Positions 10,249-16,314 of a stretch of 26,528 nt of DNA are shown piece by piece (position 1 is the stretch's first letter; each line of letters begins with the position of its first letter). The position numbers were made by a program, and so were the translations under genes. Source of the stretch: a virus (taxonomy: Duplodnaviria > Heunggongvirae > Uroviricota > Caudoviricetes). The notes under the pieces are model-generated. The model had not been told where the DNA came from. It did not search any database and worked only from the letters and a program-made list of their open reading frames with translations. The stretch covers positions 1-26,528 of the IMG/VR virus record IMGVR_UViG_2563366972_000005. The stretch is one strand, 5' to 3'.

Positions 10249-11007
10249 ATGAGGAACATAATGGCTGGTTTTTTAATATTCCTGTCTTCTGCTGCTTATG
10301 CTGATATCAATCTGTATGGTCCTGGTGGCCCGCATACAGCCTTGCTTGATGCAGCCAAACTTTACACCAAAAAAACAGGTATTATAGTGAACGTTCATTA
10401 CGGCCCACAGAACAAATGGAATGAAGATGCAAAAAAAAATGCAGATATCTTGTTTGGCGCATCAGAACAATCTGCTCTGGCTATCATTCGGGACCATAAA
10501 GACAGCTTCAGTGAAAAAGATATTCAGCCTCTTTATCTGCGAAAAAGTATTTTACTGGTAAAGAAAGGTAATCCTAAAAATATCCGGAGTATTGACGACC
10601 TGACCAGACCCGGGATTGGCATAATTGTTAATGATGGTGGTGGTACCAGTAATACATCAGGCACTGGCGTCTGGGAAGATATTGCCGGACGTAAAGGGAA
10701 TATAGAAACTGTCGCCGCAATCCGAAAAAATATTATTTTATATGCGCCCAATAGCGGAACTGCACGTAAGGCTCTTGAGAATCAGCCTGAAGCAGATGTC
10801 TGGATAACCTGGGCTGACTGGGCAGCCAGTAATCCAGGAATTGGTGATGTCGTGGAAATAGCGCCAGACTACGTGATATGGCGTGATATGAACATTACAG
10901 TACGTCAGGATGCAAATGATGAAACCCGTCGATTTGCAGAATGGCTACAAACCGATGAAGCGGCGCCTGCATTCAAAAAATATGGCTGGACCAGGAAAGG
11001 CACTTGA
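10249..11007 (+). CDS. Solitary periplasmic substrate-binding protein, ModA/WtpA-like (type 2 PBP fold), with signal peptide
   Basis: 252 aa; N-terminal signal peptide (MAGFLIFLSSAAYA); ModA-like landmarks (INLYGPGG...ALLDAAKLYTKKTGIIVNVHYG, ADILFGASEQ, C-terminal FKKYGWTRKG versus ModA FKRYGFT); AAAGGAG Shine-Dalgarno; AT-rich; no permease or ATPase partner nearby. Confidence 0.7.
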   Translation: MRNIMAGFLIFLSSAAYADINLYGPGGPHTALLDAAKLYTKKTGIIVNVHYGPQNKWNEDAKKNADILFGASEQSALAIIRDHKDSFSEKDIQPLYLRKSILLVKKGNPKNIRSIDDLTRPGIGIIVNDGGGTSNTSGTGVWEDIAGRKGNIETVAAIRKNIILYAPNSGTARKALENQPEADVWITWADWAASNPGIGDVVEIAPDYVIWRDMNITVRQDANDETRRFAEWLQTDEAAPAFKKYGWTRKGT

Positions 11008-11012
11008 CATCC

Positions 11013-11045
11013 ATCCACGTCCTTCAGGACGTGGATTCTTTTTCC
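11013..11045 (+). terminator. Rho-independent terminator after the ModA-like gene
   Basis: Perfect 10-bp stem ATCCACGTCC/GGACGTGGAT with TTCA loop followed by TCTTTTTCC. Confidence 0.7.
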
Positions 11046-11130
11046 GGATGCCGCGCCAGCGGCATGTAGGGGCAGCTCACAAAACGGAAAAAATTGTACG
11101 CTAAGCCTCGCCAGGTGAACTGAATTCATT

Positions 11131-11154
11131 CCGATATGGGAATTCCCATATCGG
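11131..11154. repeat. Perfect 24-bp palindrome CCGATATGGGAATTCCCATATCGG
   Basis: Read directly; centred on GAATTC; lies in the structured leader region upstream of hok. Confidence 0.5.
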
Positions 11155-11346
11155 GCGAAAACGGTTTGCTGTAACGGCAGAGTTAAGTAGAATTGCTGCG
11201 GGTGCTTGAGGCTATCTGCCTCGGGCATGAACACCAACGGCAGATAGATAAAAGCCCCACCCGACTATAAATCGAAGTGAGGCCCCTATATGCTCGTCAC
11301 ATATAGATTGCCTCTTACGGACCGAAAGGTCAAGGAGAAGCAGGCT

Positions 11347-11502
11347 ATGAAGCAGCAAAAGGCGATGTTAATCGCCCTGATCGTCATCTGTTTAACCGTC
11401 ATAGTGACGGCACTGGTAACGAGGAAAGACCTCTGCGAGGTACGAATCCGAACCGGCCAGACGGAGGTCGCTGTCTTCACAGCTTACGAACCTGAGGAGT
11501 AA
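11347..11502 (+). CDS. hok: Hok/Gef-family type I toxin (small membrane-depolarising peptide)
   Basis: 51 aa MKQQKAMLIALIVICLTVIVTALVTRKDLCEVRIRTGQTEVAVFTAYEPEE; close match to the Hok signature (...LTRKSLCEIR...REVAAFMAYE...); single TM helix; highly structured upstream leader. Confidence 0.85.
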   Translation: MKQQKAMLIALIVICLTVIVTALVTRKDLCEVRIRTGQTEVAVFTAYEPEE

Positions 11503-11572
11503 GAGACCTGGCGGGGGAGAAATCCCTCGCCACCTCTGATGTGTCAGGCATCCTCAACGCACCCGCACTTAA

Positions 11573-11599
11573 CCCGCTTCGGCGGGTTTTGTTTTTTCC
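11573..11599 (+). terminator. Rho-independent terminator downstream of hok
   Basis: CCCGC-TTCG-GCGGG hairpin followed by TTTTGTTTTTT. Confidence 0.6.
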
Positions 11600-11669
11600 T
11601 GGCATTCTGGTTTACAATTCGCACGCCAGCCTGAACAACTGGCACCTGCTGCGCCAGCAGAGACAACCG

Positions 11670-11948
11670 ATGGCGCACGATACCAAATTACACAATTCTG
11701 ATGATTCTGCCGTCTTTGCCAGCAGGTGCGGACGGCGTTTTCATGCATTCAAATCGGACTGGTTCCAGCATCCACCATGCACTGAAGAGCAGGCTGAATG
11801 GATAATTCAGTGTTACCGCAGGCGCGGATACGAGGTTAAAAAAGCCCTCAGCCTCGACTACCGTCACTGGATAATCTCCGTCAGGCTTCCTTACTCCGAA
11901 CGCCCACCGCGTCCGTCCCGCACATTCCAGCAACGCATCTGGAGGTAA
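11670..11948 (+). CDS. Hypothetical nin-region protein
   Basis: 92 aa from ATG 11670; stop TAA lies 1 nt before the GTG start of the downstream gene (coupling); weak RBS. Confidence 0.4.
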   Translation: MAHDTKLHNSDDSAVFASRCGRRFHAFKSDWFQHPPCTEEQAEWIIQCYRRRGYEVKKALSLDYRHWIISVRLPYSERPPRPSRTFQQRIWR

Positions 11949-15285: not shown

Positions 15286-15361
15286 GGCCCTTTAGCTCAG
15301 TGGTGAGAGCGAGCGACTCATAATCGCCAGGTCGCTGGTTCAAATCCAGCAAGGGCCACCA
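15286..15361 (+). tRNA. tRNA-Ile2 (anticodon CAU, lysidine-type, reads AUA), ileX-like
   Basis: Cloverleaf folded by hand: acceptor GGCCCTT/AAGGGCC, anticodon loop CTCATAA, T-loop TTCAAAT, encoded CCA; near-identical to E. coli tRNA-Ile2. Confidence 0.88.
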
Positions 15362-15362
15362 A

Positions 15363-15439
15363 CCGCCACTAGCTCATCAGGAAAGAGCGTCAACCCTTTA
15401 AGTTGAGAGTGCGAGGTTCGAGTCCCCGGTGGCGGTCCA
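15363..15439 (+). tRNA. Noncanonical tRNA-like gene (anticodon loop CCTTTAA: UUU at 34-36 but C at position 33; A.C mismatch in T-stem)
   Basis: Acceptor CCGCCAC/GTGGCGG, U8, D-arm GCTC/GAGC, T-loop TTCGAGT, encoded CCA; anticodon stem TCAAC/GTTGA. Confidence 0.55.
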
Positions 15440-15441
15440 GT

Positions 15442-15517
<76 letters not shown>

Positions 15518-15520
15518 TAT

Positions 15521-15595
<75 letters not shown>

Positions 15596-16232: not shown

Positions 16233-16314
16233 CCGTCACTAACTCATCGGGTAAGAGTGCATAACGCGTATTGTTGTTTTGTGGTGCGGGGTTCGAGTCC
16301 CCGGTGACGGTCCA
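16233..16314 (+). tRNA. tRNA-like gene / probable pseudo-tRNA, paralogous to the gene at 15363, with expanded noncanonical anticodon region
   Basis: Intact acceptor (CCGTCAC/GTGACGG), D-arm (ACTC/GAGT), T-arm (CGGGG-TTCGAGT-CCCCG) and CCA, but 28 nt between D- and T-stems instead of 23; best anticodon stem ATAAC/GTTGT gives loop GCGTATT. Confidence 0.45.

Follow-up and report, generated by a model that had tools for sequence, protein, structure and literature searches.

The stretch examined here, positions 1 to 26,528 of the IMG/VR virus record IMGVR_UViG_2563366972_000005 (Caudoviricetes; "the window" below means this whole stretch of 26,528 nucleotides), carries a small toxin gene of the Hok family behind a structured leader. 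We conclude, with little room left for doubt, that positions 11166 to 11597 hold an intact type I toxin-antitoxin module (hok/mok/sok) of the hokD/hokW kind, located in a lambdoid prophage. A first-pass annotation, made from the letters of the sequence, had described a hok-type type I locus at this place, and this was borne out by the Pfam match of the toxin, the Rfam model of the leader, the RefSeq name hokD and a covarying mRNA structure. The kind of locus is already known; it is a textbook type I system, annotated as hokD in hundreds of Escherichia coli prophages.

The toxin open reading frame (ORF), which had been assigned to the Hok family, starts at an internal ATG (11347) of a 70-aa frame (11290-11502) and encodes the 51-aa peptide MKQQKAMLIALIVICLTVIVTALVTRKDLCEVRIRTGQTEVAVFTAYEPEE. 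This peptide matched the Pfam family HOK_GEF (PF01848) over profile positions 1-42 of 42, with 82.9 bits against a cut-off of 22 (E = 1.2e-23), and all 51 of its 51 residues were identical to those of HokD from E. coli K-12. With a hydrophobic stretch, MLIALIVICLTVIVTALV, and with both Cys15 and Cys30 present, it fits the features of the family, i.e., a length of about 50 aa, an N-terminal hydrophobic helix and conserved cysteines. All elements of the hok locus were intact, with no insertion sequence (IS) insertion and no frameshift, and the Shine-Dalgarno sequence (SD) and ATG of hok itself were kept in all homologues of the 33-sequence alignment described below. Codon 47 of hok (11485-11488) reads TAC followed by G (UACG). 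A-to-I editing of the hokC, hokD and hokE mRNAs by TadA has been reported to recode a residue to Cys46 (preprint 10.1101/2025.08.07.668861), and if the edited codon is that of Tyr47 here, editing would yield Cys.

Upstream of the toxin gene, the window matched the Rfam family RF01794 ("sok") at 11200-11349 on the plus strand, with 103.9 bits compared to a gathering score of 59 and over model positions 1-157 of 157; the Rfam hok/sok search proposed in the first-pass annotation was thus positive. The last three consensus positions of the model (AUG) fall on the hok start codon. Since the match is on the plus strand and ends on this AUG, RF01794 models the leader of the hok mRNA, which holds the Sok target, rather than the antisense RNA itself. 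We placed the 5' end of the mRNA near 11200 from the first position of this model and the conserved GGGUGCUUGAGG, and the 3' end from the intrinsic terminator; that the gene ends in a terminator of its own had been recognized correctly (stem 11571-11588 followed by a T-run). A strict consensus promoter scan of 10900-11750 reported no promoter on either strand, and the promoters were therefore placed by homology. The hok -10 aligned with TATAAT of K-12 hokC and TAGAAT of the phage Rac hok, and it lies 6 nt before the conserved GGGTGCTTGAGG.

The RNA from 11200 to 11597 (398 nt) had a minimum free energy (MFE) of -169.6 kcal/mol (z = -8.0 compared to shuffled sequences). The fold of the window was projected onto an alignment of 33 distinct homologues from Escherichia, Shigella, Kluyvera, Citrobacter, Pseudocitrobacter, Photorhabdus, Erwinia and others, where 88.4% of the cells could pair, compared to 41-47% when the partners were slid by 1-3 columns, and the pairs with changes on both sides numbered 32, compared to 7-16 when slid. 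The projected structure was derived from one of the aligned sequences, which somewhat favors that fold; the size of the gap and the double changes nevertheless make a convincing case for a conserved, covarying structure. The helix between the translational activator (tac) element at the 5' end and the fold-back inhibition (fbi) element near the 3' end was 92.4% paired, with compensatory changes in 3 of its 12 pairs (for example U-A to C-G in Photorhabdus), and the helix between the mok SD and the anti-SD box (helix 5) was 95% paired, with compensatory changes in 4 of 8 pairs. When the RNA was cut at 11551, which removes the 3' 46 nt including fbi, the predicted fold changed; the 5' end (tac) re-paired with 11252-11258, in the anti-SD box, and the mok SD was left weakly paired, with 2 of its 4 bases in a 2-bp helix. 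This predicted refolding matches the closed-to-open switch described for R1 hok (PMC9841398). As for the hairpins that had been read as a structured leader, the 9-bp stem reported within 11205-11250 does lie in the mRNA (11212-11220/11239-11247); the two others, at 11048-11065 and 11131-11154, are upstream of the promoter and are treated separately below.

The first-pass annotation had also pointed out an in-frame ATG at 11290 that would give a product of 70 aa. This is correct, and the codon corresponds to the mok start, as in the annotated K-12 mokC. The mok ATG was kept in 32 of the 33 homologues, and the frame it opens varied, being that of hok in 19 and a different one in 14 (nine with an unrelated Mok of 55-69 aa ending near the hok stop, four with a 19-aa stub, and one having lost the ATG). 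Given this variation among homologues, it is the translation of the mok frame that appears to be conserved and not its product, in agreement with R1 mok, for which translation rather than the product has been reported as what counts (PMC9841398). A one-base indel at 11310/11311 (TAGATT-GCC versus TAGATTAGCC) shifts the mok frame and also removes the first T of the Sok -10; further indels in the interval between mok and hok act as well, so that the frame class of mok does not follow the base at 11310/11311 alone.

An antisense Sok-like RNA had been expected on the minus strand around 11250-11340, and homology supports a placement within this region, with a predicted Sok running from about 11298 to 11244. 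Its position was taken from K-12 sokC, the annotation of which begins 9 nt within mokC and extends to approximately 50 nt upstream of the mokC ATG. The predicted RNA folded into a 9-nt single-stranded 5' tail, one long hairpin and a U tail, UUUUAUCUAU (-21.4 kcal/mol; z = -4.7), a shape that would be the classical one for Sok. In the predicted promoter, the start site lies 7 nt beyond the -10, with a geometry equal to that of K-12 sokC, and the -10 is at the position (in the homologous octamer) of the sokW -10, mutation of which abolished antitoxin activity using primers YO-421/422 to replace the sense-strand TAGGTTAG (PMC8621323). The first-pass annotation had found no convincing promoter for the antisense RNA, and this can be ascribed to the poor consensus match of the -10, CAATCT, which escaped the promoter scan as well. 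The Sok hairpin region (11255-11290) does not contain a 21-nt segment seen in most hokD/hokW-type copies of E. coli prophages (compared to loci L003, L004, L008 and L010), and it resembles the short form found in Photorhabdus and Citrobacter, although the toxin encoded here does not differ from that of the E. coli copies. The combination indicates that the hok module is itself mosaic, and the short form possibly represents a different Sok specificity class, limiting cross-talk between copies.

Table 1. Features of the hok/mok/sok module and its upstream flank (positions in the window; an empty strand cell means that no strand was assigned)
Feature	Position	Strand	Description
paa (AcfC-family adhesin, Pfam SBP_bac_11)	10249-11036		Cargo gene with its own strong terminator, directly upstream of the hok module
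paa terminator and second hairpin	11013-11065	+	Terminator 11013-11036 plus T-run; hairpin 11048-11065; 3' flank of paa, not part of hok
24-bp perfect palindrome CCGATATGGGAATTCCCATATCGG	11131-11154		Upstream of hok, 11 nt from its -35; next to the transcript but outside it
hok/mok promoter	11166-11193	+	-35 TTGCTG 11166-11171, 16-nt spacer, -10 TAGAAT 11188-11193; read from the sequence
Full-length hok (mok-hok) mRNA	11200-11597	+	Predicted, ~398 nt
tac (translational activator) element	11200-11211	+	mRNA 5' end; pairs with 11552-11564 in the MFE fold
Stem-loop just downstream of tac	11212-11220 with 11239-11247	+	9-bp stem, in the mRNA
Predicted Sok antisense RNA	~11298 to 11244	-	~55 nt; spans SD and start codon of mok; placed from the aligned K-12 sokC annotation
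Anti-SD (ucb-like) box	11254-11260	+	Pairs with 11277-11283 in the MFE fold; sequesters the mok SD in the full-length RNA
mok Shine-Dalgarno GAGG	11279-11282	+	7 nt before ATG 11290; GAGG columns invariant in 33 homologues
mok leader ORF	11290-11502	+	70 aa; in frame with hok here, Mok being 19 residues plus Hok
Predicted Sok promoter	11305-11333	-	-35 TTGACC (complement of 11328-11333), 17-nt spacer, -10 CAATCT (complement of 11305-11310), +1 at 11298
hok Shine-Dalgarno AAGGAG	11332-11337	+	Read from the sequence
hok toxin ORF	11347-11502	+	51 aa; Pfam HOK_GEF, identity to K-12 HokD, RefSeq name hokD
fbi (fold-back inhibition) element CCUCAACGCACCC	11552-11564	+	Pairs with the mRNA 5' end; covaries with the 5' end across genera
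Intrinsic terminator of the hok mRNA	11571-11597	+	7-bp GC-rich stem 11571-11588, then T-run TTTTGTTTTTT; -13.8 kcal/mol

The mechanism we propose for the module follows that of R1 hok/sok by homology; its structural steps are supported in silico, and from the same homology we infer Sok transcription, mRNA processing, RNase III cleavage, toxicity and role. Transcription from the hok promoter would yield a stable mRNA of about 398 nt in which the 5' tac is paired to the 3' fbi. While the RNA is closed in this way, the upstream anti-SD box would sequester the mok SD, and neither ribosomes nor Sok would act on the RNA until slow 3' trimming had removed fbi, upon which tac would re-pair with the anti-SD box and the mok SD would be freed. 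In the presence of the prophage, the short and unstable Sok, made from the minus strand, would pair over the mok SD and start codon, and RNase III would cleave the duplex. Once the supply of Sok stopped, mok would be translated and Hok produced through translational coupling or, in this locus, possibly also as an in-frame 70-aa Mok-Hok, and Hok, a 51-aa inner-membrane peptide, would collapse the membrane potential. RNase III cleavage of the duplex and killing upon Sok decay have been shown for R1 (PMC9841398) and in part for hokW (PMC8621323).

Comparison with known hok loci, which had been suggested as a check, placed the locus close to K-12 hokD and farther from hokC; mok, hok and sok are annotated in homologous loci. 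K-12 hokD (relF), which lies in the cryptic prophage Qin, has the identical toxin (51/51 residues) and approximately 99% identical DNA from the SD to the terminator (11333-11596), and the downstream neighborhood of Qin (DUF968/YdfU, then Q) is like that of the window. However, relBE truncates K-12 hokD 14 nt ahead of its ATG, with homology starting at 11333 in the hok SD, and missing from this copy are promoter, tac, anti-SD box, mok start and Sok, all of which the window has. As K-12 retains only the part corresponding to 11333-11596 behind relBE, the window holds the complete form of the locus and K-12 a 5'-truncated remnant, and the window thereby shows what the truncated K-12 hokD was in its complete, ancestral state.

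The experimentally characterized hokW-sokW from Sakai prophage 5 (Sp5), an Stx2 phage (PMC8621323), is likewise a hok/sok module of a lambdoid prophage, and the window contains exact matches to the hokW primers YO-351 (first 50 nt; 11198-11247) and YO-350 (11536-11560). HokW differs in its C-terminus (…DYESEK), the leaders of hokW type (e.g., L008) have a Sok hairpin region that is 21 nt longer and a -10 of TAACCT, and Stx-phage records including the hokW-type locus showed about 86% nucleotide identity to the query (window 11000-11650). The K-12 locus hokC/mokC/sokC (gef), whose sokC served as the template for placing Sok, shares the layout, the in-frame mok and the Sok promoter class (TTGACC-17 nt-CAnTCT), whereas it is only about 80% identical in nucleotides and 82% in amino acids, is flanked by IS186 and is chromosomal, not part of a prophage. 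Finally, R1 hok/sok (parB) has counterparts of tac, fbi, the ucb/anti-SD box, mok, hok and Sok, a 398-nt mRNA and the same refolding logic (PMC9841398). It is, in contrast, plasmid-borne and more distant in sequence, and was compared here element by element; its role is post-segregational killing of plasmid-free cells, from which the role in a prophage may differ. With its in-frame mok, short Sok hairpin and CAATCT -10, the locus of the window is a natural variant for studying cross-talk among the several hok/sok copies of a genome.

The surroundings identify the prophage as a lambdoid one of the Rac/PPompW type found in E. coli, with hok between the adhesin gene paa and the DUF968-RusA-Q genes. 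The genes of the window run from an S24/HTH repressor through YdaT, DnaT-like and lambda-P-like replication genes and DUF1627 to paa, hok, DUF968, RusA and Q. A megablast search with 11000-11650 found relatives in 4735 of 5426 complete E. coli genomes, at a median of 2 places per genome, with a query coverage of at least 80% in 666 genomes and an identity of at least 99% in 59 records. RefSeq features beneath the matches were named "hokD: type I toxin-antitoxin system toxin HokD" and "paa: AcfC family adhesin Paa", and identical DNA was hokD beside paa. In the best RefSeq record, the neighborhood comprised racR, a ydaT-like gene, replication genes, DUF1627, paa, hokD, a small ORF, DUF968, RusA, Q, four tRNAs, a holin and a lysozyme, i.e., a Rac-type lambdoid prophage, and GenBank phage records named PPompW carried the same segment with 98.8% identity. 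By contrast, none of the complete E. coli genomes covered 80% of the window (1-25000) in one place, the best reaching 68% coverage at 91.6% identity, which shows that the prophage as a whole is a mosaic.

Within this mosaic, hok/mok/sok is a small self-contained cassette in the early-right (nin) region. Its limits, about 11166-11597 with the promoter as the left edge, were drawn from where sequence matches begin and end. On the left, matches in other phages start at query 159-184 (window 11158-11183), and in a BLAST comparison with 53 hok loci from other species, homology starts at query 27-54 (window 11176-11203), mostly at 11185-11198; on the right, many E. coli matches end at 11596.

A plausible role for such a module would be retention of the prophage, or else faster lysis and phage release after induction, as in hokW-sokW of Sp5, with which growth arrest after mitomycin C came earlier and phage release was doubled (PMC8621323). 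Enrichment of hok in prophages has been reported (bioRxiv 10.1101/2025.08.07.668861), and the sequence does not discriminate between retention of the prophage and help in lysis. Several points weigh against reading the locus as an intact module with such a role. Sok transcription and the ends of the hok mRNA are predictions; the hok -35 is a weak consensus match and the scan found no promoter on either strand; the Sok -10, CAATCT, agrees with the consensus at 2 of 6 positions, though these are the -11 A and the -7 T; the in-frame mok makes a 70-aa fusion possible; the prophage role rests on one study of a related locus (PMC8621323); and chromosomal hok/sok loci have been tested earlier without post-segregational killing, as cited in the introduction of a preprint (bioRxiv 10.1101/2025.08.07.668861).

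A rival reading is that the locus is a relic, intact in structure but silent, with weak transcription or none and without activity in killing or maintenance. Both promoters match the consensus poorly and escaped the scan, the Sok -10 is without the first T of most homologues (TAATCT or TAACCT), hokA, hokB and hokC on the chromosome gave no post-segregational killing according to the work cited in that preprint (bioRxiv 10.1101/2025.08.07.668861), and K-12 hokD is itself a truncated relic. We nevertheless regard a silent relic as unlikely, given that every element is intact and that compensatory changes across genera maintain the fold, implying continued selection; moreover, K-12 sokC, an annotated expressed small RNA, has the same class of -10 variant, and the related prophage locus hokW-sokW is active (PMC8621323). 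A somewhat smaller chance attaches to the idea that the true product is an N-terminally extended Hok of 70 aa from 11290, in place of a regulatory mok and a Hok of 51 aa. The ATG at 11290 is indeed in frame, is preceded by the conserved GAGG and is read through to the hok stop, but the frame of the extension is not conserved (14 of the 33 homologues being out of frame), whereas the SD and ATG of hok are conserved in all of them. The complete hok/mok/sok module, with a 51-aa toxin and a regulatory mok, is accordingly the reading we retain.

The two hairpins upstream of the promoter had been counted as part of the hok leader in the first-pass annotation. One of them, placed at 11047-11064, is present but lies one base further on (11048-11065, with a 7-bp stem 11048-11054/11059-11065), and the other, a 24-bp perfect palindrome, is exactly where it had been reported, at 11131-11154. 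The view that these and the stem near 11205-11250 form one hok leader was rejected, since the first two precede the transcription start and fall outside the conserved module. Further, the spacer between paa and hok (11037-11199) was found in 580 E. coli genomes compared to 4735 for the hok module, and this, together with the module edge at the promoter, indicates that neither the hairpin at 11048-11065 nor the palindrome belongs to the leader.

The upstream hairpins, and the palindrome in particular, might still take part in hok regulation, as an operator or insulator of the hok promoter or as a section of a longer leader read through from paa or pR. In favor of this, 11 nt separate the palindrome from the hok -35, the fold of the spacer is stable (z = -5.5), and in a second, unrelated flank context (L062/L076/L087/L091) the palindrome is again found approximately 47 nt upstream of a hok -10. 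We hold such a role to be very unlikely, however, as the palindrome is upstream of the conserved mRNA start, homology to the aligned hok loci from other genera does not extend upstream beyond about 11176, the spacer is so much rarer than the module, and the palindrome occurs in dozens of contexts without hok, including KilA-N genes, intergenic DNA of Dhillonvirus phages, a RecT-like gene tail and an ORF of 70% G+C. More tentatively, and as a possibility to which we give a little less than an even chance, we regard the palindrome of the window as an orphan copy of an undescribed element that is constrained at the DNA level to stay symmetric and normally resides inside phage KilA-N genes.

The palindrome, CCGATATGGGAATTCCCATATCGG, occurs once in the window, where 0 occurrences are expected by chance; it is the longest perfect palindrome of the window and contains no stop codon in any frame. 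Exact copies were found in 51 contigs of IMG/VR and in 45 from metagenomes. Among the viral copies, about 39 have the paa-hok flanks, and the rest are distributed over at least 8 unrelated flank contexts of 27-71% G+C. The commonest of these contexts is a single fixed site within KilA-N domain genes of phages (…LS(A/S/T)-DMGIPIS-(E/G)L(V/I)Q..KGG….QGTWVHP), and the KilA-N contexts with the palindrome span 27-64% G+C (loci including L073, L090, L110, L113-L155, L228-L235 and L340-L451). Two KilA-N genes have the same 24-mer at the same position of the domain but in another frame, encoding RYGNSHIG instead of DMGIPIS. Outside KilA-N, exact copies were seen in non-coding DNA of E. coli prophages, including the window, in a RecT-like gene tail and in a giant ORF of 70% G+C. 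A 23/24-nt copy is located in intergenic DNA of virulent Dhillonvirus phages, near copies occur in phages of Providencia, Klebsiella, Proteus and Hafnia, and in a further prophage, the same genome slot carries a copy with one mismatch in front of different cargo. In the Dhillonvirus Escherichia phage welsh (L109 2470-2760), the 23/24-nt copy is found 20 nt after a helicase/primase gene, between two direct repeats of about 29 nt, AAGATTAAATTTTGCGCGCRTTGGTTGCC, and next to a run of iteron-like GCGGGACA repeats, in an origin-like region.

Symmetry was examined in a set of 75 distinct 24-mers, obtained by a pattern search of viral contigs in which only CCG, GGAATTCC and CGG were fixed. The free 5-nt arms were fully complementary in 14 of these (0.07 expected) and matched at 4 of 5 positions in a further 17 (about 1 expected). 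In the symmetric variants, amino-acid changes come in pairs (M/I, T/V, A/A, V/T, R/R), and a D-to-E change is coupled with a synonymous GTA-to-GTT change (GAT…GTA versus GAA…GTT). For an unbiased sample of KilA-N genes, we searched by the downstream QGTWVHP codons alone, and obtained 79 new distinct contexts. Of these 79, 19 had a perfect palindrome of 20 bp or longer (each arm 10 nt or more), in loci of 36-64% G+C, with its center 44-59 nt upstream of the QGTWVHP codons and mostly at exactly 50. When the same peptides were re-encoded with pooled codons, only 0.5% were palindromic compared to the observed 24%, and the explanation that the peptide forces the palindrome was rejected on this ground. 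Variant peptides (VVQICTT, ETGYPVS) are still encoded by palindromes of 22-24 nt, and some DMGIPIS genes have no palindrome.

Other explanations for the palindrome were also tried. An insertion of 24 nt into KilA-N genes was rejected, since palindrome-free homologues have the same peptide length (L356, for example, encodes DMGIPIS). A sequencing or adapter artefact or a chimera junction was ruled out, as the palindrome is at the same place in 580 complete E. coli genomes, both flanks are in one continuous KilA-N ORF, and symmetric variants exist. An intrinsic terminator was not supported either, with no T-run after 11131-11154 on either strand and a silent terminator scan. Nor was a hairpin in the sense-strand mRNA, since G·U-type mismatches were equally frequent on the two strands (28 versus 28) and the central AATT stays self-complementary; the absence of a G·U bias and the symmetric center rather suggest a symmetry at the DNA level or a mutational process. 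Template switching at quasi-palindromes, which could keep the symmetry without any function, is a serious alternative to a constrained element. If the element is functional, it could be a site recognized by a protein or through its structure, for example an operator, a cruciform, or a replication or recombination signal, or else a hot spot for the exchange of phage modules.

The window copy reads as an orphan at a module junction. It may be what is left of a decayed KilA-N gene; in the related phage L110, a KilA-N gene with a 23/24-nt copy of the palindrome is divergent from a hok locus at a distance of about 530 nt. No KilA-N ORF was found in the window, and the similarity of the flanks of the window copy fades within about 12 nt. 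Rfam gave no match at the gathering threshold for the palindrome of the window, and none at E <= 1 on the palindrome in four KilA-N loci bearing it. Literature searches found no description for the sequence string or for KilA-N together with palindrome, hairpin or inverted repeat, which, with incomplete coverage, is weak evidence of novelty. As a perfectly symmetric 24-bp element kept inside a DNA-binding-domain gene across very different phages, with orphan copies dispersed over module junctions, the palindrome could matter more than the hok locus beside which it was found; a function, if it has one, would make it a new cis-element in phage genomes or offer a clue to the recombination of phage mosaics.

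Some minor observations concern the rest of the neighborhood and the homologues. The slot occupied by paa has other cargo in other prophages, for example a KilA-N gene or an IbrB-like/PAPS-reductase pair. Downstream of Q, a cluster of four tRNA genes (15286-15595) comprises one with a CAT anticodon, Lys-TTT, Thr-TGT and Gly-TCC, the first being tRNA-Ile according to RefSeq in a similar prophage; a fifth, tRNA-Val (16233-16314), was called by ARAGORN and not by Rfam at the gathering score, and is doubtful. Among the homologues, L018 (Acinetobacter idrijaensis, 275-nt contig) and L023 (Xanthomonas pisi, 431-nt contig) encode Hok peptides 96-100% identical to that of E. coli, and given the tiny contigs and distant genera, these probably represent contamination of the assemblies. 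The Actinobacillus phage vB_Apl-pPE4 (H42), which matched the query at 89% nucleotide identity, is equally unexpected for its host.

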